From: Candidatus Hydrogenedens sp.
GTDB taxonomy: Bacteria > Hydrogenedentota > Hydrogenedentia > Hydrogenedentales > Hydrogenedentaceae
DNA length: 64,000 bases
Direction of reading: 5' to 3'
Assembly: GCA_049968235.1 (NCBI GenBank)
Contig: JBMFRC010000004.1
Span: forward strand, 190,013 to 254,012
The position numbers and the translations under genes were made by a program. The notes under the pieces are model-generated. The model worked only from the letters and a program-made list of their open reading frames with translations, had not been told where the DNA came from and ran no database searches. Numbering within the stretch: the stretch's first letter is position 1; each line of letters opens with the position of its first letter. This document shows positions 4,984 through 60,849 of this stretch, piece by piece.

Positions 4984-4996
4984 ATATTAAAAGAAT

Positions 4997-8790: not shown

Positions 8791-8805
8791 AGTTATAATA
8801 AAGAT

Positions 8806-27799: not shown

Positions 27800-27829
27800 G
27801 AATAATCAATCCTTTGAATTGAAAACAAT

Positions 27830-29745: not shown

Positions 29746-29769
29746 TAGTTAAATTATTTTAATTTAGGA

Positions 29770-35673: not shown

Positions 35674-35691
35674 ATGAATCTCCTTTAATTA

Positions 35692-36657: not shown

Positions 36658-36678
36658 TAGAAATTTCTATTTTCTGGT

Positions 36679-37722: not shown

Positions 37723-37812
37723 AGTTTTTAATTATGTAATTACAGGTCAAATATCATACAATCTTATATCATATAACGAAAAAAAGTAAAAATTCTTTTC
37801 TTGTAAAAAACT

Positions 37813-38415
37813 ATGTTTCAGTTATCTGTTTATATTCTATTCTGGTGTTTGATTAATGGAGCACAAACTTTTTATGGTGAAGTTCCTGAAAATATTCCCA
37901 CTTTTTTGATAAAAATTCAACGAGAACAAAGCGAGTTTTATGGAGGTATTATTGTTCAGGGACAATGGGTAGATAATGCTTCCCTGCCTGAATTGAAAAG
38001 CAAATCGGTTGAAATTGTTGTAGATACACCCTGGGAAACGCCCCAAATTCATCGTCGTGAATTAGGTCACCGAATTGAACTTTCGTATGAAGCACCTGTA
38101 TTACGTAAAAAAAGACTGGAAGACGGCTGGAAAAAAGCAGGTTATGTACTTTTAGATAATCCACAGGGGAAAAAAGTTATTAAAGAGACTACTTATAAAC
38201 AAGCATTACAGGCAATAGAAATGGCTCAATCTATCTATCAGCAAAATCAGCCACCTGAATTATTGTATAGTCCAAGTGGGGTTGCATTTGATTCTAATAC
38301 CAATAAAAATACTTTTATGAAACAGTGGATTTTCCATATTTTGATAGTAGTTTCAGGGATATTGTGTTTATCTTTCATTATTTGGAAGTTTTTGTTAACC
38401 TCTCATTCCTCGTAA
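37813..38415 (+). CDS. Hypothetical protein with an N-terminal signal peptide and a C-terminal TM anchor.
   Basis: Hydrophobic N-terminus and C-terminus (WIFHILIVVSGILCLSFIIW). Confidence 0.45.
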   Translation: MFQLSVYILFWCLINGAQTFYGEVPENIPTFLIKIQREQSEFYGGIIVQGQWVDNASLPELKSKSVEIVVDTPWETPQIHRRELGHRIELSYEAPVLRKKRLEDGWKKAGYVLLDNPQGKKVIKETTYKQALQAIEMAQSIYQQNQPPELLYSPSGVAFDSNTNKNTFMKQWIFHILIVVSGILCLSFIIWKFLLTSHSS

Positions 38416-38435
38416 AATATCTCTCCTATATTAAC

Positions 38436-40076: not shown

Positions 40077-40153
40077 GATATCCCAACTCCTTTTAATAAC
40101 ATACCATTATAGGAATTGATATTTACATTTAACATGAAAATTTTTCTGAATCG

Positions 40154-42697: not shown

Positions 42698-42715
42698 TTT
42701 TTATCTCCTTTTTGT

Positions 42716-44044: not shown

Positions 44045-44211
44045 AGGATAAACTCCAATTTAATTTTAATAACCAATATCTATTTTTTACCCAATAAAAA
44101 AATATATAGCAATTTTAATGCAAATAGAGGTGTTAAATAAAGCAAGCGACTACTCTAAAATAATCTATCACAAGGAAGAATGTATCTTATAAGAATTTTT
44201 CACTTTTGGAA

Positions 44212-45762: not shown

Positions 45763-46354
45763 ATTGTTTTATTAACTCCTCTGTTTGTTGTAATTTTTCG
45801 GGGGGAACATTTTCAATACGATGACCTATTTTTCGTGCTGGGACCCCTGCCCATATTTCCAGAGGTCCTACTTTCGTATCCTCTACAAGGACACTACCCA
45901 CACCAATAATAGCACCATCTCCAATTTCTACCCCTGGATGTATATAACATCGGCTTCCTACAAGGACATCATCTCCGATAATAATCGGTTTGGCTATATG
46001 GGGTGTTAAAGCAAAATGCTCTTTTGTCCCCCAGAATACATGATTTGTATCTCGAATAACTGTAAATTCCGCAACAGCGGTATTACTTCCAATTTGTATC
46101 AATGCTGTAGATTCTAAAATTGTATAGTAACTCAATAGTGAATGGGTCCCCATTATTATTTTTCCTTCTTTATGAGTGCGAAGTATCACATAATCCCGAA
46201 ACCGGCAATAATCCCCGCACTCCACATGTCCCTCTATGGTAAAGTGTTTTCCTTGAATACGACATTTTTTTCCTTTCCTGGCAAATTTCAAGCCATGATA
46301 ATAACTTCGCCAGCGAACTAAAAAAGCCTCAAACATGTTATACAATTCCTCCAA
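45737..46354 (-). CDS. Hexapeptide-repeat (left-handed beta-helix) acetyltransferase (WbbJ/WcaF-like).
   Basis: IGDDVLVGSRCYIHPGVEIGDGAIIGVGSVLVED hexapeptide repeats. Sits between the RND and OMF genes and overlaps the OMF start by about 26 nt. Confidence 0.75.
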   Translation of the reverse strand: MEELYNMFEAFLVRWRSYYHGLKFARKGKKCRIQGKHFTIEGHVECGDYCRFRDYVILRTHKEGKIIMGTHSLLSYYTILESTALIQIGSNTAVAEFTVIRDTNHVFWGTKEHFALTPHIAKPIIIGDDVLVGSRCYIHPGVEIGDGAIIGVGSVLVEDTKVGPLEIWAGVPARKIGHRIENVPPEKLQQTEELIKQYGIRKFRY

Positions 46355-46363
46355 TATCTATTT

Positions 46364-49300
46364 TCATAAGGAACTATTTTCTAATTGCTGTTTTTGTTCT
46401 AACATTGAAAATACAGGCTCTACTTCTTCAGGTTTTGGAATTCTTCGATTTCTAATTGTATATGCTAATCTTCGAATATCATTTAATACACCAATAATAG
46501 CAGGTATAAATAGAAGTGTAACACTAGTCGCAAACACTAATCCTATAGCTAACGAGACTGCCATCGGTTTCAGGAACTGTGCTTGCATATCTCGTGTAAA
46601 AAGCAAACTTATAAGCCCTCCAAATGTAGTAACTGAAGTTAAGAAAATAGCACGAAATCTTCTCTTACCCGCCTGGAGAATAGAAGAAATAAAACTATTC
46701 CCTTCGCCAAGGTTTGCATTAAAGCAATCAACAAAAACAATAGCATCATTAACAACTACTCCGGAAAGGGCAACAATACCGAATAGACTCATAAGTGTAA
46801 CAGTTTGTCCGAACAATAAATGTCCAATCAATGCGCCTACAACTCCAAATGGAATGGTAAGCATAATTAATAGCGGTTGAGAATAAGAATGGAATATCGA
46901 GGAAATAATTAGGAAAATTAATAACAATGCAATAGGAAAACCCACTTTTAAGGAGCTAAGGGCATCACTACTATTTTGTTGAGGTCCTTCAAACGACCAT
47001 ATTAATCCCGGATATTTCCTTTGGAGCAATGGGAGGAAATTACTTGTTAAATCGCCAATAATTTCTGTTGAATTTGCTTTTGTTGTTTCTATATCTGCTG
47101 TTACGACAACTCTTCGCATCCCATCAACACGGGTTATTGAAGAAAATCCAGGAGTATAATCTACATCAGCAACAGCAAATAAAGGAACTTCATATCCTTG
47201 ATTGGTTCGTATGCGAACTTGATTTAATATAGAAAGATAACTTCGGTCCTCACGGGGATAACGAACCCGTATGCGAATATCATCTCTACCTCTTTGTATT
47301 CGGACAGCCTCTTCTCCGAAGAAGCCACCCGCTAATTGTCTTCCTAATGAATCCAGAGTTATCCCCAATGTTTGTGCCTCTGGTTTCAGATAAAATCTCG
47401 CTTCAATTTTTGCAGGTCGATAATCATCCTCAATTTGATAAACTCCATCATAAGTTTTAAGTTTCTCTTTTATCTCCTGGCTTGCACGAATCAGATCTTG
47501 AAGGTTTTCACTCCTTAACCACAACTCAATACCTGTTCCACGGGGACCTCCTCCACTTACATCATATTTCTGTTTTAATGTTCCGGGGATAGTCCCTGTT
47601 TCTTTTGCCCACATGGAAGATAATTTCTTGGCATGAATCCCTCTTCGTTCTGTGGGTAACAATTCTACACGGATTTCACCTACATTACTCCCCCCCTGAG
47701 CCGAAAAACCGCTACTGCTCTGACCCACAACACTGTAAACATTCTGAACTAAAGGTTCACCACTTATTGTTGTTGTTTTTTCTACTAATCGTTTCAAGGC
47801 GGATTCCATCCTCTTCACCGCATCTTTTGTAACATGAAACGGTGTCCCGGAGGGAAACTCAACCTGTGCCATTAAATAGTCCCCATCAGCCTCAGTAAAA
47901 ACTTCAAATTTAATAATTTGCCCCCGAACAAGTCCCATTATTGTTAATAATATAGCAATAGAGGCAGTTAACGAAATGTAACGATGCCTTAACATGGCAT
48001 TTAAAAACGGAAGATATATTTTGTCAACAAAAGCATCAAGGGAATCGCTGAAGAACCATCTTAATTTTTTCAGAGGATGTTTCCGATTATCCGAATTCGA
48101 AATGGTATGAGATAAATCAGGCAAGTCATTAAGGTGAGCGGGGAGTAAGAAGAGAGATTCAAATAGTGATACACTCAACGCTGATATAACAACAATTGGT
48201 AAAATACGGATAAACTTACCCATAATTCCACTTACAAACATTAATGGGATAAATGCGGCTATTGTTGTTGTTACAGCCCCTATCACGGGCAGCCCCACTT
48301 CTTCTACACCCGTTAACGCCGCTTTCATGGGTGGCAATCCTCGCTGGCGATGATAGTATATTGCCTCTCCTATAACAATCGCATCATCAACCAACATACC
48401 TAATACCATGATTAGTCCAAACAATGACATCATATTTATAGTATCCCCATGAATATACATAATACTGATAGCCCCAGCAAAGGAAATAGGAATACCTAAA
48501 GTAACGAAAAAGGACAAACGAGCATCCATTAATAACAACAACATCAAAATAACGATAACTAACCCTTGAACACCATTCATTTCAAGCAAATTTAACCGGG
48601 CTCGAATGAGCCGGGCACTATCGTTCCACACGGAGATTTTTACACCCGGAGGCAATTGTTTTTGTTTCGCCTCTACATATTTATGGACCGCATCGGATAT
48701 AGCTATATCATCTTCCTCCTGTGTTTTGAAACATGAAATCAAAACTGATTTTTCTCCATTAAAATCTGCCTCTAAGGGGTCTTCATTAAAATCATCTCGT
48801 ATTTCCGCTACTTGGTCCAGAGTAATCACTTCACCTGTAGGTTTGGCTAATACTACTATCTTAGCCAATTCATCCGCATAATATTTTCTACCTATTGTTC
48901 GAATACGTATTTCGGCTCCTTTAGAACGAATAAGTCCCCCAGAAATGTTTAAGTTTCCGGAACGAATTGCTGATGCCACCTGTGAAAATGTTAACCCCAA
49001 CTTTTGAAGTTTTTCTTCGGAAATTTCAATTCCTATTTCATACTGTTTCGCACCAAAAATAAAAACCTGTGATAGTTCCGGAAGTGCCTGTAATTCATCT
49101 TTTATCTGTTCTGCCCACTCTTTTAAGATTTTATCGGGTAAATTTCCGGATAATGCAACCTGAATAACTTCACGGCGAATAGTTACTTCATTTGTTATTG
49201 GTTTCTCTGCGTCTTTTGGAAATGTAGAAATAGAATCAATGGCATTACGAACCTTATCATATACCTTACTTAAATCATAACTATCCATTACCTCAATATT

Positions 49301-49576
49301 TGCCATCCCCATATTTTCCGAAGCAACGGTAGTATATCGTTTAATTCCTTCCACAGTATCCAGTGATTCTTCAATTTTACGACAGATGCCTTCCTCAACT
49401 TCTTCAGGGTCTGCACCGGGATAAATTACCTGCACTGTTATCATATCTAAAGAAAATTCAGGGAACAACTCTCTTCGAATTAATAAGAGAGAAATTATTC
49501 CCCCAATTAGGATAACTGCAGTCAGTATATTTGCAAAAACACGGTTTCCAACAAAATACCCTAAGAACTGATTCAT
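46364..49576 (-). CDS. RND family efflux transporter (AcrB/HAE1-type), inner membrane subunit.
   Basis: 1070 aa. 12-TM pseudo-twofold architecture with two large periplasmic loops and typical AcrB N-terminus (…FVGNRVFANILTAVILIGG). Confidence 0.9.
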   Translation of the reverse strand: MNQFLGYFVGNRVFANILTAVILIGGIISLLLIRRELFPEFSLDMITVQVIYPGADPEEVEEGICRKIEESLDTVEGIKRYTTVASENMGMANIEVMDSYDLSKVYDKVRNAIDSISTFPKDAEKPITNEVTIRREVIQVALSGNLPDKILKEWAEQIKDELQALPELSQVFIFGAKQYEIGIEISEEKLQKLGLTFSQVASAIRSGNLNISGGLIRSKGAEIRIRTIGRKYYADELAKIVVLAKPTGEVITLDQVAEIRDDFNEDPLEADFNGEKSVLISCFKTQEEDDIAISDAVHKYVEAKQKQLPPGVKISVWNDSARLIRARLNLLEMNGVQGLVIVILMLLLLMDARLSFFVTLGIPISFAGAISIMYIHGDTINMMSLFGLIMVLGMLVDDAIVIGEAIYYHRQRGLPPMKAALTGVEEVGLPVIGAVTTTIAAFIPLMFVSGIMGKFIRILPIVVISALSVSLFESLFLLPAHLNDLPDLSHTISNSDNRKHPLKKLRWFFSDSLDAFVDKIYLPFLNAMLRHRYISLTASIAILLTIMGLVRGQIIKFEVFTEADGDYLMAQVEFPSGTPFHVTKDAVKRMESALKRLVEKTTTISGEPLVQNVYSVVGQSSSGFSAQGGSNVGEIRVELLPTERRGIHAKKLSSMWAKETGTIPGTLKQKYDVSGGGPRGTGIELWLRSENLQDLIRASQEIKEKLKTYDGVYQIEDDYRPAKIEARFYLKPEAQTLGITLDSLGRQLAGGFFGEEAVRIQRGRDDIRIRVRYPREDRSYLSILNQVRIRTNQGYEVPLFAVADVDYTPGFSSITRVDGMRRVVVTADIETTKANSTEIIGDLTSNFLPLLQRKYPGLIWSFEGPQQNSSDALSSLKVGFPIALLLIFLIISSIFHSYSQPLLIMLTIPFGVVGALIGHLLFGQTVTLMSLFGIVALSGVVVNDAIVFVDCFNANLGEGNSFISSILQAGKRRFRAIFLTSVTTFGGLISLLFTRDMQAQFLKPMAVSLAIGLVFATSVTLLFIPAIIGVLNDIRRLAYTIRNRRIPKPEEVEPVFSMLEQKQQLENSSL

Positions 49577-50922
49577 GAAACAGATTCCTTATCTCCCGAT
49601 TTCTGGATTTCTAATAGTGAATTTTCTATTGGATTAATCAAACGCGTTGTAACAACAACAGTTCCTGGATTAAGACCACTCACAATAACTTCATCACCTT
49701 GAATATATAATCTTTCCACCTGAACCGATTTCAATCGGTCATTCTCTGCGGTATATACTGTCCCTTCAAAACTTACAGCGGTGTCCGGTAACCGATATAC
49801 ACTTGATAATGTTTTGCCCGGAATTTTTACCTGACAGAACATACCCTGAACCAGTGGCATTTTATCATCAGACACCGAAAAAATATTTTCCTTTTCAATA
49901 CGAACAACTGCATAAATAGTCCTGGTTTTCTCGTCATATCTTTCGACACGATGTAGTAACCCTTTCCATTTATGATTTTCTTTATCTTCTGTCCATAGAA
50001 TTTCACATTCTTTAGGCTCTAATGGTGGAAACCATGCAGAATCAATATTTATATTATCCTTTTGAAATGGAAGCCACTGTGTTGCCTGTTTCGCATCTAA
50101 AGGGACGGATATTTCCAGAATGGAATCATCTGAAAGTGTCATTACAACAGAACCAGGGGTTACATATTGTCCTGCTTCAAGATTCACTGTTTTAATCCGT
50201 GCATTAAAAGAAACCTTTACCTGGGTTCGCGATAAATTTATTTCTGCCTGAGATAACTGAGATTCTGCATTTTTCACTGCTTCCTCTGATTCCCTGACTC
50301 GTAAAGGATACAAATCGATAGATTGAACTAATAAATTATAAGCGTCTAATGCTTGATTATATGCCCGTTCCGTTTGCTCAACATTGGATTGCGTACCTAC
50401 TTTATCTCGTTCAAATAACTGTTTCACTCGTTGGAATTCTGAATAAGCAAGATCTTTAGTACGCTCTAATGTTTTAAGCCGTTCTTTATCGGAGGCAAAC
50501 TGTTCTTGTGTTCTTTTCAATGCCTGCTTTGCCTGTTCCAAACTTGCCTGCGCAGATTTTAGTCGAACTTGATAATCACTGGGGTCTATTTCAAATAAGA
50601 CTTCCCCGGCAGGGATAACCTCACCGGCTTCCAATCTTGGATGAATACGAATAACACGCCCTGATACTTCCGGCGCTATAGGGACCGTTGCTAAGGTTCG
50701 AACTTCTCCAAATCCATTTAATATAATCGGAACATTTTCCGGTTGCACCTGAATTACATCAACAGGGATGGGACGTTCTTCCTGTTCTGCTTGTGCTGGA
50801 GGTTTACGAAAGGAAGAAAAGAAAACAAAAGAAATTATTCCCAACAGCAAAATTAGAATAGCGATTACAAATGAGAATAATTTTGCAAATGTAATATATT
50901 TTTTTACTTCTTCGTTACTCAT
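49573..50922 (-). CDS. RND efflux periplasmic adaptor (membrane fusion protein, HlyD/AcrA family).
   Basis: N-terminal TM anchor, long coiled-coil hairpin, beta-barrel C-terminus. ATGA overlap with the RND gene. Confidence 0.85.
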   Translation of the reverse strand: MSNEEVKKYITFAKLFSFVIAILILLLGIISFVFFSSFRKPPAQAEQEERPIPVDVIQVQPENVPIILNGFGEVRTLATVPIAPEVSGRVIRIHPRLEAGEVIPAGEVLFEIDPSDYQVRLKSAQASLEQAKQALKRTQEQFASDKERLKTLERTKDLAYSEFQRVKQLFERDKVGTQSNVEQTERAYNQALDAYNLLVQSIDLYPLRVRESEEAVKNAESQLSQAEINLSRTQVKVSFNARIKTVNLEAGQYVTPGSVVMTLSDDSILEISVPLDAKQATQWLPFQKDNINIDSAWFPPLEPKECEILWTEDKENHKWKGLLHRVERYDEKTRTIYAVVRIEKENIFSVSDDKMPLVQGMFCQVKIPGKTLSSVYRLPDTAVSFEGTVYTAENDRLKSVQVERLYIQGDEVIVSGLNPGTVVVTTRLINPIENSLLEIQKSGDKESVS

Positions 50923-50936
50923 AAAACTTCCTCACT

Positions 50937-51410
50937 TTATTTATTGTTATTCTGAACAGACATTAAGTATTCTCTTATCTTTTTATAAACATCAACCCAT
51001 TGGGAGGATGTTTCATCACCTAAACCTTTTAATAATTCACCTATACCTTTTAACACTTGATTTTCATGCCATTTCATAGATTCACTGGCTTCCGGACTTA
51101 ACCTTATTTGAATTTCTCGACGGTCCTCAGATGACTGCTCACGAACTACCAGTCCCAATTCTACCAATCGGTCCAACATGAGACTTGCCGCAGAAGGGGA
51201 TACATTAAGATATTCCGACAATTCTTTTAAGTTTAAAGGCTCAAAGTTTTTTATCGTCATTAACATATGAAACTGGGGCATAGTAAGGTTATGCTCGAAC
51301 TTTAATTTTTCCTTTTCAGGGGAACAGCAATGAAACCGGCTATGTATCCATTTCTGAATCATTTGAATTGTTTTTAATATCTCATAGGCTGACTGTTCAT
51401 ATCGTTCCAT
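50937..51410 (-). CDS. MarR family transcriptional regulator.
   Basis: Winged HTH LTMPQFHMLMTIKNF...LSEYLNVSPSAASLMLDRLVELGLV. Confidence 0.8.
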   Translation of the reverse strand: MERYEQSAYEILKTIQMIQKWIHSRFHCCSPEKEKLKFEHNLTMPQFHMLMTIKNFEPLNLKELSEYLNVSPSAASLMLDRLVELGLVVREQSSEDRREIQIRLSPEASESMKWHENQVLKGIGELLKGLGDETSSQWVDVYKKIREYLMSVQNNNK

Positions 51411-51449
51411 TATGCATCTCCAACAATTTGTGTAATGCTATCTCTATCT

Positions 51450-51827
51450 TTATATTTTTTTCTTAACTACTTCAATAATTTCATGGACTAATTCGTCCGT
51501 AACAACTGTTTTCCCTTTTTCAACACCTAAATCTGTTATCACAATATGTTCAAATGGTATTTGTCTCTTCTCAAATATTTTCTTCCCACAGGAAACAGGA
51601 CAACCATCTATTACTACATTCCTATCTGCTCCCAAAGCAGATTGGATAAAACCTGAAGAATCAGAGGCTACTCCAGAAAGGCATGAACCACGACATACCT
51701 TCTCTTTTACTAAATTTCTCATAACCCGGTCTGCAATCAGGCCTGTGTTAGCAATACCTGAACATGCGTAAACAAGAATAGTGCCTTTTTCATCAGAACA
51801 ATTACATTGTATAAAATCAATTCCTTT
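51450..51827 (-). CDS. DGC-domain (putative metal-binding) small protein. The ORF track reports 51450..51722, but the conserved N-terminal Cys segment extends upstream with no canonical start codon.
   Basis: The VIDGCPVSCGKK DGC motif lies in the annotated part. Upstream and in frame: ...GIDFIQCNCSDEKGTILVYACSGIANTGLIADRV(M)RNL..., open to about 51827. Confidence 0.5.
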   Translation of the reverse strand, partial: KGIDFIQCNCSDEKGTILVYACSGIANTGLIADRVMRNLVKEKVCRGSCLSGVASDSSGFIQSALGADRNVVIDGCPVSCGKKIFEKRQIPFEHIVITDLGVEKGKTVVTDELVHEIIEVVKKKI

Positions 51828-52001: not shown

Positions 52002-52985
52002 TTGATTAAGATGACTACATTAATAAAATGTGAACTTTGTCCTCGTTATTGCATTCTTGAAGATGGTCAAAAGGGGGAGTGTCGTATTCGCATAAATATA
52101 GAGGGGAAACTTTATACTGTTACTTATGGGCATCCTTGTTCTATTCACATTGACCCTGTTGAAAAAAAACCTCTATATCATTTTTTACCGGGGACACCTA
52201 TCCTATCCCTTGCTACGGTAGGTTGTAATCTTCATTGCAAAAATTGCCAAAATTGGGAAATATCTCAGACAGAACCATACCAATTAGTAACGGAATATGT
52301 AGAACCTGATAAAATTTCCGATCTGGCTGTTCAGTATCATTGTCCTTCCATCGCTTATACCTATACGGAACCACTGGCTTATTATGAATACACTTACGAG
52401 TGCTGTAAAATATCTATTGAAAAAGAATTAAAAAATGTTCTTGTAACTGCGGGATATATTAATGAAGAACCTTACAAACGATTACTACCTTTTATCCATT
52501 CTGCAAACATAGATTTAAAAGGCTTTTCGGAGGAATTTTACAGAACTGTATGCGATGGAACGCTAAAACCTGTATTAAGAACACTGGAATTAACTAAAAA
52601 TGCAGGGGTTGAATTAGAGGTTACAAATTTAGTCATTCCAACATTAAATGATAAAGATGAAGACCTAAAAAAACTTTGTGAATGGGTCGCACATAATTTG
52701 GGGAAAGATACACCGTTGCATTTTTCCCAATTTTATCCACGATATAAAATGACACATTTACCTCCAACACCATTAGAGACTCTTCTAAAAGCACGTCAAA
52801 TTGCTTTAAATGAAGGTTTACAATTTGTATATATCGGTAATATTATTCACAGAGAAAGTTCAAATACCTATTGTCCTTCCTGTAAAACTTTACTTGTTGA
52901 GCGATATGGTTTTAGTGTGCTTCAAAATAATATTTCACAGGGGAAATGTCCCAAATGTAACACGGAGATATATGGAGTATGGTAA
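52002..52985 (+). CDS. AmmeMemoRadiSam system radical SAM enzyme.
   Basis: Family-specific N-terminal Cys motif CELCPRYCILEDGQKGECRIR, followed by ...EKKPLYHF...GCNLHCKNCQNWEISQ (CX3CX2C). Confidence 0.85.
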   Translation: MIKMTTLIKCELCPRYCILEDGQKGECRIRINIEGKLYTVTYGHPCSIHIDPVEKKPLYHFLPGTPILSLATVGCNLHCKNCQNWEISQTEPYQLVTEYVEPDKISDLAVQYHCPSIAYTYTEPLAYYEYTYECCKISIEKELKNVLVTAGYINEEPYKRLLPFIHSANIDLKGFSEEFYRTVCDGTLKPVLRTLELTKNAGVELEVTNLVIPTLNDKDEDLKKLCEWVAHNLGKDTPLHFSQFYPRYKMTHLPPTPLETLLKARQIALNEGLQFVYIGNIIHRESSNTYCPSCKTLLVERYGFSVLQNNISQGKCPKCNTEIYGVW

Positions 52986-53198
52986 TAAATAGACGAAGAT
53001 TTTTATCATATATTTTAACTGCTGTAATTACGAAACAGGGTATTAAAAAACCCTCATTAATCCGGCAAACTTACGCAATACCTCTTTACAATAAGGAACT
53101 TTCTAAATATAATAAGAAAAGTATTTTTTCGTCCAAACCTTCACCATGGATGGGTTAAAATTTAATATAATAAAACAGAATAAATAAGGGGATATTTA

Positions 53199-54734
53199 AT
53201 GAAATATTATTATTTTATTATTTTGTTCTTTCTATTCATTGTTGTTATTCCATTTGCATGTGGTGATAATTCTAATTCGGATAAGGAAAAAGAAATGCAG
53301 TTACCAAAAGTTTATAAATCATTAATAGCAGGTCAATGGTATGATGCATCTCCCGAGAAACTTAGACAGCAAATTTCGGAGATGTTTAATAATGCTAATG
53401 TAGAATCCGCAGGAAATGTGATAGGGCTTATATTACCTCATGCGGGTTATACATACTCAGGATTAACTGCATGTAAAGGAATTAAAACAACGGAAAAATC
53501 TTTACACTCAAGAATAATTATATTAGGGACAAGTCACAGAGCACCTTTAGAGAATATAGTAAGTGTTCCATCTGTGGATTTTTATGAAACTCCATTAGGA
53601 CAAATACCTCTTGACGTGGATACTATTCAAGAATTAAAAAAATTCCCATATTTTAAGGAAGTTCCTTTAGCACAACAGGGAGAGCATAGCGTTGAAATTG
53701 AACTGCCATTGTTACAATACTTAAAAAAAGATTTTAAATTAATCCCTTTAATTTGTGGACGATTGGATATTGAAACGACAGAAAAAATAGCCCGGATATT
53801 ACAAAATTACATAGATGAAAAAACATTGGTTATTGCCAGTAGCGATTTTACTCATTACGGACACAATTACAATTATGTCCCTTTTAGTGAGAATATTCCG
53901 GAAAATATTAAAGAATTAGATATGGGAGCATATCAATATATAGAGAAACGAGATGTGAAGGGATTTTATGAATATATCAAAAGAACAGAAATTACTATTT
54001 GTGGTCCGTATGGGATTGGAGTTTTGATGTATCTATTACCCGAAAATACTCAAACAAAACTTTTAGAATATAAACAATCCGGTGAAATTGTAAATGATTA
54101 TCAGAATTCTGTAAGTTATTTCAGTATTGTTTTTACCGGGACATGTGAAAAGAAAGAAAGGACTCCTATGAATAGTTCAACGACATTAACATCTGAAGAG
54201 AAAAAAGATTTATTAAAATTGGCACGCTGGACACTTGAATATGTGTTAGAACATAACAAATTGCCTGCGGATAACGAAATACCTATTAAAATAACAGAAA
54301 CAATGAAAACGCCACGCGCCGCATTTGTTACATTAAAAATAAATGATGATTTACGAGGTTGTATCGGTGAAATTTTTGCAACGAAATCTATGTATAGGTC
54401 GGTTCTTCAGAATGCATATAATGCAGGCTTTAAAGACCCCCGATTTTATCCTATTACAAAGGATGAACTACCTAAGATTAAAATTGATATATCCCTTCTA
54501 ACACATCCCAAAAAAATAAATCATTATACCGAGATTGAATTAGGCAAACATGGAATTATTCTAAAAAAAGGGTATAACCAGGCTTTATTCCTACCACAGG
54601 TAGCCCCGGAACAGAATTGGAATTTACAGCAAACTCTGGAACATCTGTCTATGAAAGCGGGTTTACCGCCGGATGGATATAAAGAAGGTGCTGAATTTGA
54701 AGTTTTTGAAGCAGAGGTATTCCACGAAGAGTAA
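53199..54734 (+). CDS. Fusion of a Memo-like domain (AmmeMemoRadiSam protein B) and an AMMECR1 domain (protein A), with an N-terminal signal peptide or lipoprotein-like leader.
   Basis: Memo motifs AGQWY, PHAGYTYSG, GTSH, SSDFTHYG. AMMECR1 motif LRGCIGE in the C-terminal half. Leader MKYYYFIILFFLFIVVIPFACGDNSNSDKEKE. AAGGGGA SD before the first ATG. An alternative internal start (MQLPKV, about 53295) would remove the leader. Confidence 0.8.
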   Translation: MKYYYFIILFFLFIVVIPFACGDNSNSDKEKEMQLPKVYKSLIAGQWYDASPEKLRQQISEMFNNANVESAGNVIGLILPHAGYTYSGLTACKGIKTTEKSLHSRIIILGTSHRAPLENIVSVPSVDFYETPLGQIPLDVDTIQELKKFPYFKEVPLAQQGEHSVEIELPLLQYLKKDFKLIPLICGRLDIETTEKIARILQNYIDEKTLVIASSDFTHYGHNYNYVPFSENIPENIKELDMGAYQYIEKRDVKGFYEYIKRTEITICGPYGIGVLMYLLPENTQTKLLEYKQSGEIVNDYQNSVSYFSIVFTGTCEKKERTPMNSSTTLTSEEKKDLLKLARWTLEYVLEHNKLPADNEIPIKITETMKTPRAAFVTLKINDDLRGCIGEIFATKSMYRSVLQNAYNAGFKDPRFYPITKDELPKIKIDISLLTHPKKINHYTEIELGKHGIILKKGYNQALFLPQVAPEQNWNLQQTLEHLSMKAGLPPDGYKEGAEFEVFEAEVFHEE

Positions 54735-54736
54735 TT

Positions 54737-57700
54737 GTGAAGAAATATTTTTTACCCATTGCATTAGGTTTCTTTTCAATCACAGCACAAGCATTGCTTG
54801 TGCGTGATTTTCTACATTGTATCGAAGAAAATGAACTTTCATTAGGTATTCTTTATTTTTTCTGGTTCTTGTGGATTATCCCCGGTTCTCTTGTGGGAAA
54901 ACTTTTATATAAATATTCCCATCTTTTTCCTGTTATCTCCCTTTTTTATATTCCATCATGGCTATGGGGACACTTTTTGGTTCGTAATTCGCGAGATATC
55001 TCAGGCATCGCTACCTATGAACTTTTTGACATTCATTCTCTTTTTTTATACTCCGCAATAGCACCTGCAGGAATAAGTTTTCTTACAGGATTTTTATTTA
55101 CCCATTGTTCCTTATGGTGGCAGGATAATTTTACATATGGAGAAAGCAATTCCAAACCTTCGACGGTAGTTCGTTATGTATATGCTTATGAGGCTTTCGG
55201 CGCAGTATTAGGTGGAATTACTACTTCATTTAGTATTTACCTCGGATTTTCCCATTGGATACCTTTTTGTATTTCCGTAGGATTCCTAATTATTTCCTCT
55301 CTTTTATTATTGGACTATCCATTTTTGAAAAAGGCATTTCTTATCATTCTTCTCCCCTTACTCCTGCTATCAGCATTCCTGCTGGAAACATGGGAAAATA
55401 AATCTTTGTGGGAATATATTACAAAAAATGAAAATTTTAAGGGAAAAATAATTACCCAAAAGGGAGAATATTTATATGGATATGATACCAACCAATTTAT
55501 ACTTTTAAGAAATCTCAAACCTACATTAAGGTTTCCAAATCAAGAATATGGCTTACAGTTACTATCTACTTTTATTGCTCAGAAAAACGATGCTACAAAC
55601 ATTTTACTCATTGGAGAGCCTTTCGTTTATACATTACCTTATCTAATAAATATTAAGAGCATCGAAAAAATTTTATGGATACCTTTTGATTTTGAATTAT
55701 CTACAAAAATTATTTCACTATTGCCTGAAAATTCCCTATTCAATAATAAAAAACTCATTTTCCCGCATAATGAACCTCGTTCTTTTTTGAAAAGCACTAA
55801 TGACAAGTTTGACATTATTCTTGTTTATACGGATAACCCACAAACTATTTCTTCTAATCAATACTTAACAGATAGTTTTTTTAGTTTACTCAAAATTCAC
55901 CTTACAGATAAAGGCATGGCAGGGATTCGAATGTCGGGAGGAGAAAATTTTTTAGGTGGAGAAATATCAGCACTTGGTTCGTCTATATATTTTACTTTCC
56001 AACAGGTATTCAAAGTTAACGCACTAAAACCCGGTGAAGAAACCTGGTTATTTGGCTCTTTGAATTACCCTATAAGTGAACATGTGCCGACCCTTGAACA
56101 ACGATTGTCTAACATATCAGAACAAATCCCGGAAATCAAACCCGGTATCGTAAGAGATCTATATCCCGCTGATAGAATTATTTTTCAAAAAAATCGCTAC
56201 GAGGAAATTAAGAAATTTATCCGTGAAGATTATTTGATTAATACGGAAGACAAATATCTCGGTTTTCTGTATAGCAATCTTTTTTATCTCTGGAAGCAGG
56301 GCTATTCGGGACTGTTAGATAAAATTGATATTATTAAGCAAATTACTCTTTTCCTTTTATTTTCATCTCCTTTATGCTTCTTATTAGCACGCTGGATATA
56401 CAAAAGGAAGTCAATCCGAAAAGGGAAAGAAAAAATTTTTGCTACTACTTTAGAAACATATTTCGCTATTCTTGCTATTGGGACCATTGGCATGGGAATT
56501 TCTATTCTTCTACTTATACAATTTCAATACTGTTATGGAACACTCTCAACTTATATTGGTCTCTTATCATCAATGTTTATGCTGGGACTTTCAACAAGTC
56601 CCATTACCTTTAATTCATTGTATGCGGATAAAAATCATAAGCAATCGTTTTTTGTTGTTTTCTCTCTTTTTTCTATCTGTGCTATTTATACACTTGCGAT
56701 ACTTTTTGAATTGTCCGTTCATTTTTATACCTACCTCGTTATACTCTTTTTATGGGGGCTTTCGTTAGGCTTTCTTCTCTCCATGTTTCTTAATACATTA
56801 GATAAAGAATCAACTACTTCTCAGATTGCGGTAAATTTAGAGATATGGGACCACCTTGGAGCAGGGCTAGGGGCTTTTATATTTCCAATTATTCTACTCC
56901 CTCTGTTCGGATTGCAGTTTTCTGTCGGATTTATTCTCTTATCTCTGCTACTGGTTCTTTTATTTATACCTCTTCTTCAAACAATTCCTGTCTGTAAGTC
57001 TTCATCGTGGGGAAGAGTTTACGGCTATACCTTATTCCCCATCCTTGTATTATGTTTTATCTCTACGGAGATATATCATCGTTCCACAGTTCCCTTACCA
57101 GGAGATGCATTTACAAAAATTGCTCAAGAATTATCTGATGGTGGAAAACTTCAACTTGAAACAATAACGCTTCCTGATAATAGACAACTCCGTTATTATA
57201 CAGTTACAAAAAAAGATGAAAATCAGAATAAAAATATCTCATATATTTTTTCTACTGCTTCATTATTTAAGGTAATTGGATATGGTGGGGAAATGGATAT
57301 CGCCGTTAAGGTATCTCGGGAAGGAAATATTGAAAACATTAAAGTTATTCAATCCAATGAAACCCCTGATTATTTGTCCCGGGTTGAAGATTACTTCTTT
57401 TTATATAAAGGGAAAAATATATTTCAGCCTGAAAGTATCTCGGAAATAGATAGTGTAAGTGGAGCAACAACAACCGCTGATGCTGTGAAGCGTGCTGTCC
57501 AATTTGCGGGAAAAGAATTTGCACAAATTATCCAGAGCAACAACATAACTCAAACAAAAACATCGTTCAATTATGATTTTTCTGCCCCAACGACATACTC
57601 CATATATATCTTCCTCTTATTTATTCTTCTGGCTATAATTTTTCGATTTTTCCATAGTGACTTACTACGGACATTATGGTTAATCTGTGTAGTATTGATT

Positions 57701-58294
57701 TTAGGTTTCTGGCTAAATATCCAATATGGTCTATATTTTATCGTTCAACTTTTATATGTGGATAAGTTACAATTTCATTTAAATGTCCCAACCCTTTTAA
57801 TTATTGGTATTCCTGTGCTCATTTTAATAAACGGCAATATTTATTGTGGGTATTTATGTCCATTTGGAGCGTTGTCCGAACTAATAAGCAAACTGGATTG
57901 GATAAACAAAAAAATAATCCCAACAAAACAAACATGGTATATAACCCGACAGTTTAAATACATTCTTGCTTTTGTATTTTTCTCTACATATTTTTTTAAG
58001 AGAGAAGTAAAAATGATAGATATTGACCCTTTGCTTTCCTTTTTTACTCTGGATATATCAAACTATATAACAATATTTGGAATTTGTGTTTTATTGGCAA
58101 GTTTTTTATATAACCGTTTTTGGTGTAGGGTACTTTGTCCCACAGGTGCTTTTTTAAGTTTAATTCAATCTCTTCGAATATTTTCATTTTTCTGGCAAAA
58201 AACTTTCCCTACACATTGTGACCTTGGAATATCAAGACCTGAAGAAATAGACTGTATTCAATGTAATCGGTGTTATAAACATGAAAAAAAATGA
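54737..58294 (+). CDS. Giant (1185 aa) polytopic membrane fusion protein. N-terminal TM block, degenerate spermidine-synthase-like (PABS/MTase-fold) segment, second TM block, FMN-binding (FMN_bind) domain, and a NapH/NosR-type TM domain with two CX3CP motifs plus a C-terminal CxxCxxC Fe-S motif.
   Basis: SpeE-like: NILLIGEPFVY...DKFDIILVYTDNPQT...FFSLLKIHLTDKGMAGI. FMN_bind: DSVSGATTTADAVKRAV. CX3CP: CGYLCPFGAL and WCRVLCPTGAF. Terminal HCDLGISRPEEIDCIQCNRC. Starts 2 nt after the Memo-AMMECR1 stop. Confidence 0.6.
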   Translation: MKKYFLPIALGFFSITAQALLVRDFLHCIEENELSLGILYFFWFLWIIPGSLVGKLLYKYSHLFPVISLFYIPSWLWGHFLVRNSRDISGIATYELFDIHSLFLYSAIAPAGISFLTGFLFTHCSLWWQDNFTYGESNSKPSTVVRYVYAYEAFGAVLGGITTSFSIYLGFSHWIPFCISVGFLIISSLLLLDYPFLKKAFLIILLPLLLLSAFLLETWENKSLWEYITKNENFKGKIITQKGEYLYGYDTNQFILLRNLKPTLRFPNQEYGLQLLSTFIAQKNDATNILLIGEPFVYTLPYLINIKSIEKILWIPFDFELSTKIISLLPENSLFNNKKLIFPHNEPRSFLKSTNDKFDIILVYTDNPQTISSNQYLTDSFFSLLKIHLTDKGMAGIRMSGGENFLGGEISALGSSIYFTFQQVFKVNALKPGEETWLFGSLNYPISEHVPTLEQRLSNISEQIPEIKPGIVRDLYPADRIIFQKNRYEEIKKFIREDYLINTEDKYLGFLYSNLFYLWKQGYSGLLDKIDIIKQITLFLLFSSPLCFLLARWIYKRKSIRKGKEKIFATTLETYFAILAIGTIGMGISILLLIQFQYCYGTLSTYIGLLSSMFMLGLSTSPITFNSLYADKNHKQSFFVVFSLFSICAIYTLAILFELSVHFYTYLVILFLWGLSLGFLLSMFLNTLDKESTTSQIAVNLEIWDHLGAGLGAFIFPIILLPLFGLQFSVGFILLSLLLVLLFIPLLQTIPVCKSSSWGRVYGYTLFPILVLCFISTEIYHRSTVPLPGDAFTKIAQELSDGGKLQLETITLPDNRQLRYYTVTKKDENQNKNISYIFSTASLFKVIGYGGEMDIAVKVSREGNIENIKVIQSNETPDYLSRVEDYFFLYKGKNIFQPESISEIDSVSGATTTADAVKRAVQFAGKEFAQIIQSNNITQTKTSFNYDFSAPTTYSIYIFLLFILLAIIFRFFHSDLLRTLWLICVVLILGFWLNIQYGLYFIVQLLYVDKLQFHLNVPTLLIIGIPVLILINGNIYCGYLCPFGALSELISKLDWINKKIIPTKQTWYITRQFKYILAFVFFSTYFFKREVKMIDIDPLLSFFTLDISNYITIFGICVLLASFLYNRFWCRVLCPTGAFLSLIQSLRIFSFFWQKTFPTHCDLGISRPEEIDCIQCNRCYKHEKK

Positions 58295-58595
58295 TTTTAT
58301 TTTTTTTACCGTTTCATTACTTTATGTTATTGCCTTTTTTGTCATTTTTATCTATCATATTCTACCTGAAAAATTACCAACAGAATTATCTTATATACAA
58401 ACAGAAGGGGATTCTATAAAACCGACAGGAACTGCAACGGATATTGAAAAAATTAAAAGCATGATACAAAACAATCAACTTTCTGATAAGGAAGCGTTGT
58501 TTTACAAAAAATTGCAGGAAGAGGGAAAAAAAAATCCTCAAAAACATCAACAAATCCGTAATCGTTGGAGACGAGGTAAACAAAGAGATAATTAG
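58281..58595 (+). CDS. Small membrane-anchored hypothetical protein (single N-terminal TM, Lys/Gln-rich tail).
   Basis: FFTVSLLYVIAFFVIFIYHIL TM segment. Overlaps the giant ORF by 14 nt. Confidence 0.4.
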   Translation: MKKNDFIFFTVSLLYVIAFFVIFIYHILPEKLPTELSYIQTEGDSIKPTGTATDIEKIKSMIQNNQLSDKEALFYKKLQEEGKKNPQKHQQIRNRWRRGKQRDN

Positions 58596-58677: not shown

Positions 58678-60849
58678 ATGAATCACGAACAAACAACTAT
58701 CTTTTCCGAAATTCAAACATTAGATTTATTAGAAAAATATAAAATACCTGTGGCAGGATTTCGCATCTGTCATAATTTAAATGAAGTTGTTTCGTCTGCA
58801 CAAGAATTAGGATTCCCGATAACTATAAAAGGCATGGTGGAAGGGATTGCCCATAAAAGCGATTGGGGATTAGTAAAAACAGATATAAAATCAGAAGAAG
58901 ATTTACTCAAAGTAGTGAAAGAGATTCAAAACAACGCACAAGATAAGTGTTTATCCGGATTTTTATTACAAAAACATATTTATGGTAAACGAGAACTTAT
59001 CGTGGGGGGGATGAAACATAATGAATATGGTTTATGTGTTTACATTGGAATAGGCGGTATTTTCGTAGAAGCGTTAGAGGATGCATCTTTTCGTTCTGTT
59101 CCCATTCGTGAAATTGACCTACAAGAAATGATTTATGAATTGCATTTCAAAAAAATCTTTCAATCATTTCGTGGAGACCCTCCTGTTGATATACAAAAAC
59201 TTTTCCAGGTAGTAAAATCCATTGAAAATCTATTAAATAATGAAAAAGAAATCAGTCAATTTGAACTTAATCCCATTTTAATACATTGCGACACACCCAT
59301 TGCAGTAGATGCCCTTGCAATTAAAGGGGATATCATAATAACTGATAAACAATCTGAGATAATATCGCTTGATTTTAATAAATTATTAAGACTATTTGAA
59401 CCGGAAAGTATAGCCATTGTTGGTATAACAGATACTCCAATTAAATGGGGCTTTCGTGTCCTGTTCAATACTTTAGAAGGTGGGTATACCGGAAAAATAT
59501 ATGGCGTTAATCCGAAGCGAAGTGAGGTCCTAAATATTCCTTGTTATCCCTCTATTTTGGATATACCCGAAGTGGTTGATTTAGCAGTTATTATTGTCCC
59601 TCCACATGCGGTTCTACCTTCAGTTCAGGAATGTGTTCAAAAGGGTATTCAAGTCGTTCTTGTTATAACGGCAGGTTTTGGAGAATTGAATGATGAAGAG
59701 GCTCAATCTGCTCAGGAGAAATTAAGACAAATTGCTCGAGAAAATGACCTATATCTTATCGGTCCTAATTGTGCGGGTGTGGTTAGTCCAGTTCCTAAAA
59801 AACTATACTGTTCCATGATAGGAAGATACCCACAACCTGGTGGTTTAAGTATTCTATCACAAAGTGGAAACATTGGAAACACGGCTATGAGTTGGGCGAT
59901 GGAACATCATTTAGGACTATCACGATTTATCAGCACAGGCAACGAAGCAGTTATTAAAAATTACCACTACCTGAACTTTTTTGGTTCTGACCCTAAAACA
60001 AAAGTGATATTTTCTTATATTGAAAGTGCTAAAGATATTCGGATTTTCTTTGATGAATTAAAACATGTAACGAAGAAAAAACCGGTTATAGTATTGAAAG
60101 GAGGCAAAACCCATGCGGGTTCTCGTGCCGCTTCTTCCCACACTGGAGCATTAGCTACTGATTACCGATTATTTCGCGGAATTTGTGTTCAACAAGGGGG
60201 AATCTTAACTGAAGATATTTATGAAGCAATGGAAACAGCTCATCTTCTTTCGAATGTTCCACTTCCTCGAGGCAGAAATGTAGGTATTTTATCTCAGGGA
60301 GGTGGTTGGGGTGTGATTTCTGCAGATGTATGCACAAAAGCAGGTTTAAATGTTGTTCCTCTTTCTGAAAATACATTAAAAAAATTAGATGCTATTATGC
60401 CTAAATGGTGGAATCGGACAAATCCTGTAGATATGGTCGCAGGAACAGATATGGACTTATTTAAAAATTCTATGGAGATATTGATACAGGACGAAGAAAT
60501 CGATATTTTGGTTATCTTAGGTATTGGCTACATCGCAAGTGCTTATGTGCGTTTACAAAATTCGGAACGAGCAAAAAGTTTGAGGCTTGATAAATTATCT
60601 GAATTTGGAACCCAATTGGAGATAAAGGATGCAGAAGAAATTGCAAGACTTATGCAAACATACCAAAAACCCATTATAGTAGCTTCTGATACGACCATTT
60701 TATCACATGGTCAAAATATAAACCCCGTATTAAAAAAACTTGAAGAAATGAACATCTATGTTTTTCAAAATCCAAACAGCATGGCAAAAGCCATCGCTCA
60801 TCTTTGCCAATACAGCGAATATATCCGGGCTACTCCTCGCATTTTTTAA
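58678..60849 (+). CDS. NDP-forming acyl-CoA synthetase (acetate--CoA ligase, ADP-forming family), with domains in beta-alpha order: ATP-grasp first, then CoA-binding/ligase-CoA.
   Basis: N-terminal ATP-grasp (LLEKYKIPVAGF...GFPITIKG). Then CoA-binding Rossmann SIAIVGITDTPIKWGFRV. Then the ligase-CoA domain. GGAG SD upstream. Confidence 0.75.
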   Translation: MNHEQTTIFSEIQTLDLLEKYKIPVAGFRICHNLNEVVSSAQELGFPITIKGMVEGIAHKSDWGLVKTDIKSEEDLLKVVKEIQNNAQDKCLSGFLLQKHIYGKRELIVGGMKHNEYGLCVYIGIGGIFVEALEDASFRSVPIREIDLQEMIYELHFKKIFQSFRGDPPVDIQKLFQVVKSIENLLNNEKEISQFELNPILIHCDTPIAVDALAIKGDIIITDKQSEIISLDFNKLLRLFEPESIAIVGITDTPIKWGFRVLFNTLEGGYTGKIYGVNPKRSEVLNIPCYPSILDIPEVVDLAVIIVPPHAVLPSVQECVQKGIQVVLVITAGFGELNDEEAQSAQEKLRQIARENDLYLIGPNCAGVVSPVPKKLYCSMIGRYPQPGGLSILSQSGNIGNTAMSWAMEHHLGLSRFISTGNEAVIKNYHYLNFFGSDPKTKVIFSYIESAKDIRIFFDELKHVTKKKPVIVLKGGKTHAGSRAASSHTGALATDYRLFRGICVQQGGILTEDIYEAMETAHLLSNVPLPRGRNVGILSQGGGWGVISADVCTKAGLNVVPLSENTLKKLDAIMPKWWNRTNPVDMVAGTDMDLFKNSMEILIQDEEIDILVILGIGYIASAYVRLQNSERAKSLRLDKLSEFGTQLEIKDAEEIARLMQTYQKPIIVASDTTILSHGQNINPVLKKLEEMNIYVFQNPNSMAKAIAHLCQYSEYIRATPRIF

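Follow-up and report, generated by a model that had tools for sequence, protein, structure and literature searches.

Positions 52002-58595 of the window, by which we mean the whole 64-kb stretch of Candidatus Hydrogenedens sp. DNA analyzed here, carry five genes on the + strand that form a conserved block. In order, they encode a radical S-adenosylmethionine (SAM) enzyme, a 59-residue protein with a twin-arginine signal-like N-terminus, a Memo-AMMECR1 fusion, a giant membrane protein of 1185 residues and a short single-pass tail protein. The block qualifies as a true AmmeMemoRadiSam locus, and none of the features that define that system is missing: the family models TIGR04335, TIGR04336 and TIGR04337 all match above cutoff on one strand within 2.8 kb, and the catalytic motifs are intact. 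The encoded proteins very probably make up one outward-facing module with a transmembrane electron conduit. For its mode of action we tentatively propose that the radical SAM enzyme is escorted across the membrane by twin-arginine translocation (Tat) and receives electrons, and probably SAM, from the giant protein, a proposal to which we give somewhat less than an even chance. In its full form this would be the first radical SAM system working outside the cytoplasm, with Tat export on a ~6-kDa caddie, a giant protein that exports SAM or a related adenosyl cation together with low-potential electrons, and Memo-AMMECR1 tethered alongside to act on an envelope substrate. That full form is rather doubtful.

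One genome per species was scanned for relatives of the giant protein, and such relatives are encoded in 169 stretches of these species-representative genomes. In all, about 165 uncultured species share the block. The host lineages are Hydrogenedentota, Planctomycetota (Pirellulales, Phycisphaerae and Sedimentisphaerales), Verrucomicrobiota, Kiritimatiellia and Lentisphaerae/Victivallales, and a few host bins carry the label Nitrospirales. The closest match to the giant protein is from Ca. Hydrogenedens terephthalaticus (82% identity). Of 64 assessable loci, 60 have the fusion gene immediately 5' of the giant gene, and in 55 of 57 the radical SAM gene lies upstream of the giant gene. Synteny is retained across phyla at 25-30% protein identity, with the genes often overlapping or nearly abutting, and the arrangement is far beyond chance. 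Clustering of all neighboring open reading frames (ORFs) gives no further broadly conserved gene beside the block. In loci L013, L040 and L057 the giant gene is present and Memo-AMMECR1 is not found within the fetched flank; the fusion may be encoded elsewhere in these genomes or be dispensable. The tail is fused to the giant protein in L013 and L040, with the radical SAM and small-protein genes just upstream, while in L057 the radical SAM gene is downstream on the opposite strand. An earlier note, made on this DNA from its letters alone, had claimed the AmmeMemoRadiSam triad, a fusion with Memo N-terminal and AMMECR1 C-terminal, a 2-nt spacing between fusion and giant gene and an overlapping, membrane-anchored ORF of 104 residues. 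All of these stand: the three family models pass their cutoffs, the domain order is as described, the giant gene begins with GTG at 54737, 2 nt past the fusion stop codon, and the overlap amounts to 14 nt. Synteny in other genomes, which that note had raised as a check, is also found, with the giant gene accompanying AmmeMemoRadiSam genes in nearly all of ~80 loci from several phyla. The four ORFs that it listed are correctly placed, and the fifth gene (52979-53158) was overlooked. It likewise did not recognize the major facilitator superfamily (MFS) fold in the membrane part of the giant protein, the predicted outward position of the spermidine-synthase-fold domain, or the origin of the 104-residue ORF as a detached tail.

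Gene fusions of Memo and AMMECR1 and their radical SAM neighborhood were already noted in 2007 (PMC2034487). The present locus differs from the AmmeMemoRadiSam system in its export- or lipoprotein-type leader, in a twin-arginine mini-protein that always follows the radical SAM gene, and in a giant protein and tail that are integral to the block. The literature searched holds no description of the leader, the mini-protein, the giant architecture or the tail, although parts may be covered in Burroughs et al., JBC 2019, which lay outside that search. No functional study of the system was found in the same literature.

The radical SAM enzyme scores 386.7 bits with TIGR04337 (cutoff 220) and 65.5 bits with Pfam Radical_SAM. 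The runner-up models are pyruvate formate-lyase activases (PflA), far under their cutoffs. The true start is likely the ATG at 52011. The cluster motif CNLHCKNC (CxxxCxxC) occupies residues 75-82, and the enzyme has in addition an N-terminal CxxCxxxC...C and a C-terminal CxxC...CxxC arrangement. SPASM, twitch and RRE (RiPP recognition element) domains are not among its Pfam matches, and it lacks a signal peptide. Homologs in 65 loci are 53-91% identical. A second, shorter PflA-like radical SAM paralog (~295 residues) is encoded together with a histidine-phosphatase-family gene 3-6 kb downstream of the block, on the opposite strand, in loci L034, L050, L053, L054, L058, L060, L073, L081 and L083, all from Planctomycetota.

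The fusion protein scores 228 bits with TIGR04336 (cutoff 26) and 166 bits with TIGR04335 (cutoff 99). Pfam places Memo at residues 43-311 (206 bits) and AMMECR1 at residues 339-508 (170 bits). A 100% identical NCBI protein from Candidatus Hydrogenedens sp. is named AmmeMemoRadiSam system protein B. The AlphaFold2 (AF2) model has a mean predicted local distance difference test score (pLDDT) of 91 and a predicted template modeling score (pTM) of 0.86; it consists of a short N-terminal helix, a disordered segment at residues 15-33 and two packed domains. In Foldseek searches the Memo part matches MEMO1 (7l5c, 7kq8 and 3bcz) with template modeling scores (TM-scores) of 0.86-0.88, the value for 7l5c being 0.88; identity to human MEMO1 is 32%. 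The AMMECR1 part matches archaeal AMMECR1 (1vaj) with a TM-score of 0.82. Residues H81, H113, D216, H219 and C268, which correspond in the alignment to conserved positions of MEMO1, do not vary among 39 homologs; the same holds for the AMMECR1 motifs R386-G-C388-I-G390 (LRGCIGE) and D413/R415 (DPRF). The catalytic residues of both domains are intact.

Translation of the fusion starts at 53199 with the leader MKYYYFIILFFLFIVVIPFAC, which is preceded by the ribosome-binding site AAGGGG. In every homolog examined (~60 loci) the leader has a positively charged N-terminus, a hydrophobic stretch and a spacer rich in Pro, Glu and Lys. The earlier note had described this hydrophobic leader and allowed for an artefact of the start; because the leader is conserved, it is not the product of a mis-called start. 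About half of the leaders have a cysteine at the lipobox position, some of them in a canonical setting (ISGC, VSSAC), and the others look like plain signals or anchors. The window leader has P-F-A-C, which is non-canonical when compared with the lipobox [LVI][ASTVI][GAS]C. A lipoprotein-like character is plausible. Export of Memo-AMMECR1, or its tethering on the outer face of the membrane, is well supported by prediction.

The 213 bp separating the radical SAM gene from the fusion are not empty; they hold the 59-codon ORF. Its product has the twin-arginine signal-like N-terminus, a basic C-terminal core and a W-x-G C-terminus. A counterpart ORF directly follows the radical SAM gene in 53 loci where both can be delimited, and no comparable locus lacks one. 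In an alignment of 28 sequences R5, R6, F8, W57 and G59 are the sole invariant positions, and a YPG motif and one Ala are nearly so. The dN/dS ratio of the gene is 0.12-0.26 in the Hydrogenedens clade. A profile search of 1.84 billion representative proteins gives 366 clusters. Among the 150 matches listed, lengths range from 48 to 103 residues, the match nearly always extends to the C-terminus, and not one is fused to a larger protein or another domain. In longer members, extra residues are inserted between the signal and the conserved core, which is ~32 residues long. No Pfam or NCBIfam model exists for the family. With the general Tat-signal model TIGR01409 (cutoff 16.7), the Lentisphaerae copy scores 21.4 bits and the Pirellulales copy 14.0. 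The N-terminal motif resembles S/T-R-R-x-F-L-K and is followed by a short, moderately hydrophobic h-region. The uncharged stretch after the arginine pair spans 11-21 residues (median 15), so short that the h-region suits a signal peptide and not a membrane anchor. The radical SAM gene and the small ORF stay together in L013 and L040, whose loci have no Memo-AMMECR1, and also where the fusion and the giant gene are both absent within 7 kb. Because the pair persists without them, it is the tightest pair of the module.

Another reading, which we regard as improbable, has the radical SAM enzyme modify still-unfolded Memo-AMMECR1 inside the cell, for example on the RGCIG cysteine, before export by the Sec pathway; the 59-residue protein would be a separate periplasmic subunit of a complex of the giant protein and Memo-AMMECR1. 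Enzymes of the PflA family act on proteins, and the anaerobic sulfatase-maturating enzyme, which acts on sulfatases before their export, offers an analogy. The fusion leader is of the Sec or lipoprotein type rather than the Tat type, and AMMECR1 has an exposed, invariant catalytic cysteine (PMC2034487). However, the pair of radical SAM enzyme and small protein survives without a nearby Memo-AMMECR1, and this reading leaves its tight coupling without a reason. It also leaves without a role the MFS transporter fold and the spermidine-synthase-fold domain of the giant protein.

The giant protein contains the candidate electron conduit. Invariance was measured in 14 full-length homologs of 25-82% identity. 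The flavin mononucleotide (FMN) domain matches PF04205 (FMN_bind) above cutoff with 53 bits and gives a partial match to the RnfG model TIGR01947. It has the flavinylation (ApbE) motif D905-x-x-S-G-A-T911, with the T911 codon at 57467-57469. The whole motif, including G909, A910 and T911, is invariant, and in an alignment with RnfG (9eri_G) its SGAT aligns with TGST. PF12801 (Fer4_5) matches in two stretches, also above cutoff, with 47.5 bits. Both CX3CP motifs and the site C1161...C1173xxC1176xxC1179 are invariant. The FMN-binding domain, the two CX3CP motifs and the CxxCxxC cluster named in the earlier note are thus all present. Its description of the giant protein as NosR/NapH-like is apt for the last third and overstated for the whole: the NosR equivalog NF046105 gives 45.9 bits against a cutoff of 1000, over residues 969-1154 only, and NapH/MauN (TIGR02163) gives 42.7 bits against a cutoff of 213, over residues 1026-1161. 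These missed cutoffs and the single Cys4 site rule out membership in NosR or NapH. Family criteria place the giant protein outside NosR, NapH and spermidine synthase, with which it shares folds and motifs.

In the AF2 model of the giant protein (pLDDT 76.5, pTM 0.63), ~20 helices lie in the membrane. Counts of charges in the 14 homologs, combined with counts of transmembrane (TM) helices, put the N-terminus, the CX3CP motifs and the Cys4 site inside and the two large soluble domains outside. A topology of 20 TM helices with the FMN and spermidine-synthase-fold domains facing outward and the Fe-S motifs in the cytoplasm is therefore what prediction supports well. It resembles NosR, PceC and the 'NapH-like' systems, in which an outward FMN_bind domain with the ApbE target Thr is followed by TM helices with two cytoplasmic CX3CP motifs and a cytoplasmic Cys-rich Fe-S site, sometimes with ApbE adjacent. 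Here the gene for ApbE, the flavin transferase that covalent attachment of FMN requires, adjoins the block upstream in L014 and L015 and downstream in L066, L069 and L070, which represent two lineages. The 'NapH-like' class, as defined by Meheust et al. 2021 (PMC8238504), comprises a PF12801 protein that contains or neighbors FMN_bind within a gene cluster for flavinylation. The giant protein combines PF12801 and PF04205 above cutoff in one chain, with ApbE adjacent in 5 related loci and none in the 64-kb window. Through flavinylated systems of this class, electrons cross the membrane and reach extracytosolic enzymes; the studied examples are NosR and PceC, and most partners are unknown (PMC8238504). 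That paper makes no mention of Memo, AMMECR1, radical SAM or spermidine synthase.

Several features set the present protein apart from these systems. The nos, pce, nirS and exaA genes are not present here; in particular, nos genes were found neither among the window ORFs scanned (which do not include those at 35059-46354) nor among conserved neighbors, and no respiratory reductase gene is conserved among the ORFs near the block. There is one Cys4 site, whereas NosR has two ferredoxin-type [4Fe-4S] motifs. The NapH-type module is fused behind the MFS and spermidine-synthase folds, and its candidate partner is Memo-AMMECR1 and/or the radical SAM enzyme. An outward-tethered Memo-AMMECR1 would be the obvious partner of the conduit. 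This supports the suggestion of the earlier note that the chemistry of Memo and AMMECR1 is coupled to electron transfer across the membrane. Gene context and predicted topology, with FMN outside, Fe-S sites inside, ApbE adjacent in related loci and a likeness to the 'NapH-like' class, speak for this coupling, which we still infer.

A further reading keeps the module on the cytoplasmic face. The leaders might anchor all soluble parts on the inside, with RRxF a vestigial Tat-like handle as in NarG, and the cytoplasmic Fe-S site of the giant protein might reduce the radical SAM enzyme directly. The cytoplasmic Cys4 and CX3CP motifs could dock the enzyme at a place where SAM is available, and in the window both the lipobox and the Tat motif are non-canonical. 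We consider this quite improbable, as the positive N-termini and lipobox cysteines of the leaders predict export and the h-regions of the small proteins are too short to anchor in the membrane. Moreover, FMN_bind with an ApbE motif is an extracytosolic feature (PMC8238504) and would here be left without a partner.

The part of the giant protein in front of the FMN domain is of a different nature. Its two seven-helix halves are the N- and C-lobes of a twelve-helix MFS fold, and the spermidine-synthase-fold domain sits between the lobes and is displayed outside on the extra hairpin TM7/TM8. The N-lobe motif E152/G155/G159 is repeated in the C-lobe as D705/G708/G712. The membrane domain of PRK03612 matches over residues 574-741. 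Foldseek finds a complete spermidine-synthase fold including the N-terminal beta-hairpin domain (TM-scores 0.65-0.73), while family cutoffs are missed, with 17.0 against 22.9 bits for PF01564 and 18.8 against 249.6 bits for TIGR00417. The degenerate spermidine-synthase-like fold of the earlier note is recovered in this way. A loop, GGENFLGGE, is conserved in the domain, and D318, D359, E403, N404, F405, G407 and E409 are invariant in the 14 homologs. The Asp of the DP motif, which we map onto the catalytic Asp of spermidine synthase, is variable among homologs. Most Planctomycetota homologs retain a GxGxG loop (VLVIGSGLGLC), which suggests that a site for an adenosyl-type ligand is ancestral. 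PRK03612-type membrane-bound spermidine-synthase-like proteins likewise combine a polytopic domain with a spermidine-synthase fold. They differ in that the domain of the giant protein is predicted to lie outside and is inserted between MFS lobes, with PF01564 below cutoff, a degenerate glycine loop and a variable catalytic-Asp position.

Genes of the putrescine pathway, for a pyruvoyl-dependent arginine decarboxylase and an agmatinase, lie a few genes downstream in L034, L046, L052, L053, L054 and L079, all from Pirellulales. They might mark a polyamine link to the spermidine-synthase-fold domain, or just synteny within the order. We set the polyamine link aside as evidence, since it is confined to six Pirellulales loci, and read it as lineage-specific synteny and a lead. 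Stand-alone relatives that combine MFS and spermidine-synthase folds (P0016, P0019) have an uninformative gene context. These genes and relatives are what could be said for the giant protein being an unrelated neighbor, a respiratory NapH-like quinol dehydrogenase or a polyamine transporter that came to lie here by genomic hitch-hiking: the six loci have polyamine genes downstream, and the stand-alone relatives occur in other contexts. Synteny across phyla at 25-30% identity, with genes often overlapping or nearly abutting, makes such an accident very improbable, and no respiratory reductase gene is conserved nearby.

How the parts could work together is summarized in the following proposal, in which the five genes encode one machine through which the AmmeMemoRadiSam system, normally found in the cytoplasm, comes to lie on the outside of the cytoplasmic membrane. 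The NapH-type Fe-S module would send electrons from the cytoplasm or the quinol pool to covalent FMN installed outside by ApbE, as in NosR and PceC. The radical SAM enzyme, which lacks a signal peptide and depends on the cytoplasm for the assembly of its Fe-S clusters, would fold there, bind the translationally coupled 59-residue protein and exit through Tat as a hitchhiker. Outside, the FMN domain may take the role of a flavodoxin and reduce the radical SAM cluster and/or the metal site of Memo. The MFS-fold transporter and the outward spermidine-synthase-fold domain would deliver a small cationic co-substrate, our most parsimonious guess being SAM or something closely related to it. The radical SAM enzyme, Memo and AMMECR1 could then act jointly on an envelope or outer-leaflet substrate. 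Flavodoxin is a precedent as reductant of radical SAM enzymes, and hitchhiker export has precedents in the MelC1 caddie for tyrosinase and in the hydrogenase small subunit. By analogy with Streptomyces MelC1-MelC2 and HybO-HybC, a small signal-bearing protein is encoded here beside a signal-less cofactor enzyme. The differences are that the escort would measure ~35 residues after cleavage, that the cargo is a radical SAM enzyme and that their binding is putative. Export of the radical SAM enzyme is the single hypothesis that uses every part of the locus.

Several points weigh against this proposal. We know of no extracytoplasmic radical SAM enzyme and of no SAM exporter, and both the supply of SAM and the removal of 5'-deoxyadenosine outside the cell are left unaccounted for. 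Radical SAM clusters are oxygen-labile, and many Pirellulales are aerobic. An RnfG-type FMN may fall short of the potential required to reduce the cluster. The 59-residue protein is a putative binder of the radical SAM enzyme; for the giant protein, the topology is a predicted one. The window copy of the small protein gives no match to TIGR01409. In L009 (Hydrogenedens sp.) and L010 (a bin labeled Nitrospirales) SRG replaces the arginine pair (..EISRGVFLN..), while the C-terminal core and a W-A-G end are kept; this loss is a natural variant that bears on whether Tat targeting is essential. The glycine loop of the spermidine-synthase-fold domain is degenerate in the window (LLIGEPFVY), a state shared by the window clade. 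Finally, tblastn finds no ApbE in the 64-kb window.

The strict conservation at the C-terminus of the small protein brings in the main rival to radical SAM export, which we judge unlikely on balance. According to this rival, the cytoplasmic radical SAM enzyme modifies the 59-residue protein at or near W-x-G, Tat exports the peptide, and Memo-AMMECR1 processes it further with redox support from the FMN/NapH module, the product being a cofactor, a signal or an envelope component. The radical SAM gene and the small ORF are an obligate pair. Beyond the signal only the W and the terminal G are invariant, and the end is always exactly G, a pattern typical of modification sites for which the C-terminus has to be free. 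The insertions of longer variants fall between signal and core, as would suit a core that acts as the functional unit. Memo belongs to the superfamily of aromatic-ring dioxygenases, with Foldseek matches to LigB and DOPA dioxygenases, which makes an indole substrate conceivable. In MftA/MftC and PqqA/PqqE, by analogy, a short peptide gene lies beside a radical SAM gene and conservation concentrates at the C-terminal extreme; MftC acts on the MftA C-terminus and PqqE acts on PqqA. The present pair differs from these in that the radical SAM enzyme has no SPASM or RRE Pfam match and is PflA-like, without twitch as well, and in that the peptide carries a Tat signal. Precursor genes are usually found 5' of their maturases, whereas here the gene is coupled downstream and overlaps. 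We know of no precedent for Tat export of a ~35-residue peptide and of no such peptide in canonical cytoplasmic AmmeMemoRadiSam systems. The MFS fold and the outward spermidine-synthase-fold domain are also left unaccounted for.

Conservation of Memo and AMMECR1 extends from archaea to humans. Work on MEMO1 has dealt with cancer cell migration and with the handling of copper and iron, and the region deleted in AMME syndrome includes AMMECR1. To our knowledge, neither has an established biochemical function, and AMMECR1 is still called 'uncharacterised' in a 2026 preprint. The block gives both a defined physical setting and explicit candidate partners, namely a flavinylated electron conduit, a transporter fold with an adenosyl- or polyamine-type domain, and a 59-residue escort or radical SAM substrate. 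Each of these is directly testable, which narrows a long-standing question about Memo and AMMECR1. If the radical SAM enzyme is exported, the range of radical SAM chemistry would reach the periplasm. The block would also offer a new type of partner for the 'NapH-like' flavinylated systems, which are mostly of unknown function (PMC8238504), and it defines two unannotated protein families, the small Tat protein with its 366 clusters and the tail motif.

The tail ORF is a real gene, the split-off C-terminus of the giant protein, and belongs to the same protein unit. Its homologs are the C-terminal extensions found in P0011, P0013 and P0014, which have a TM helix followed by LS..EA.FYKK. The tail is fused to the giant protein in 58 of 67 cases and separate in 9 (the Hydrogenedentota clade, L004 and L019). 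Neither Pfam nor NCBIfam gives a family match for it. The label SHOCT for its motif (..I..LI....LS..EA.FYKK) was dropped, as no such match appears in Pfam or NCBIfam at E <= 10. A run of eight A lies at 58284-58291 in the overlap with the giant gene (CATGAAAAAAAATGA). A programmed frameshift at this junction was rejected: the tail is in the +1 frame, there is no recognizable +1 shift site, and the split is kept in ~8 diverged genomes. Giant and tail are best described as two overlapping genes, perhaps with low-level frameshifting to a fused product. The coordinates of all features are collected in Table 1.

Table 1. Features of the five-gene block, with positions in the 64-kb window
Feature	Position	Strand	Residues	Basis or remark
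Five-gene block: radical SAM enzyme, 59-residue protein, Memo-AMMECR1 fusion, 1185-residue giant protein, 104-residue tail	52002-58595	+		
AmmeMemoRadiSam-type radical SAM enzyme, pyruvate formate-lyase activase-related	52002-52985	+		TIGR04337
59-residue protein, product MVINRRRFLSYILTAVIT...SKPSPWMG	52979-53158	+		conserved ORF; start overlaps radical SAM stop (ATGGTAA)
Memo-AMMECR1 fusion	53199-54734	+	511 in total	Pfam, TIGR04336, TIGR04335
Leader helix with Cys21	53199-53261	+		followed by disordered tether to about residue 37
Memo domain	53325-54131	+		Pfam
AMMECR1 domain	54213-54722	+		Pfam
Giant protein: MFS-like N-lobe (TM1-6) and extra TM7 exiting the membrane	54737-55423	+	1-229	
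Giant protein: spermidine-synthase-fold domain	55433-56320	+	233-528	predicted periplasmic
Giant protein: extra TM8, K/R-rich cytoplasmic loop, MFS-like C-lobe, extra TM15 leading outward	56324-57079	+	530-781	
Giant protein: RnfG/NqrC-type FMN-binding domain, outward	57104-57541	+	790-935	PF04205
Giant protein: NapH/NosR-type membrane Fe-S module	57596-58294	+	954-1185	PF12801 Fer4_5
CX3CP motif 1, CGYLCP	57845-57862	+	1037-1042	predicted cytoplasmic side
CX3CP motif 2, CRVLCP	58124-58141	+	1130-1135	predicted cytoplasmic side
Cys4 site	58217-58273	+	C1161/C1173/C1176/C1179	predicted cytoplasmic side
Single-pass tail protein: TM helix, then conserved ...DIEKIKSMIQNNQLSDKEALFYKKLQ motif	58281-58595	+	104 in total	motif predicted periplasmic

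Scans for promoters and terminators were set aside as a means of placing operon borders, with 38 promoter-like sites against 36.5 in shuffled sequence and 5 terminator-like sites against 3.8. The top promoter-like match, TTTACA-17 nt-TATAAT (11/12), lies at 53085-53113 (+) within the small ORF, 86 nt before the fusion start; such matches overall are not above the shuffled level.

Downstream of the block, the gene that starts 82 nt past the tail (58678-60849, +) encodes an ADP-forming acyl-CoA synthetase-like protein in a single chain, with ATP-grasp_5 N-terminal to CoA_binding and Succ_CoA_lig. This gene and the following GATase, HAD and Exo_endo_phos genes are syntenic only in Hydrogenedentota (10 loci), and for this reason we place the synthetase-like gene outside the core module. 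A DUF72 gene follows the giant gene in 13 loci. On the upstream side, an AT-rich spacer of 279 bp separates the module from divergent genes for a DGC-domain protein, a MarR regulator and a resistance-nodulation-division (RND) efflux pump with its membrane-fusion partner, assigned from sequence and synteny; these genes lie at 50937-51722 (-) and 46364-50922 (-). These genes are not kept beside the module at the 43%-identity level (L003).

Farther away, the window holds an envelope-glycan-type cluster at 2800-7642 (+) and 18209-20458 (-), together with 7639-10269, 20762-22300 and 26054-30966. It includes three membrane glycosyltransferases of the PMT_2 (ArnT/PMT-like) type, paralogs of one another, of which two are fused to long arrays of tetratricopeptide repeats (TPR). 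A GT2 glycosyltransferase, a carbamoyltransferase, a DegT aminotransferase, an LPG_synthase_TM protein, a HisF/HisH-like pair and three radical SAM enzymes, two of them B12-binding, also belong to it. Four ORFs of the cluster (390-774 residues), at 10286-11755 (+), 12847-15060 (-), 15925-18249 (-) and 23440-24612 (-), have no Pfam match at E <= 1e-5. A protein of 1256 residues, made up almost entirely of TPR repeats, is encoded at 30979-34749 (-).

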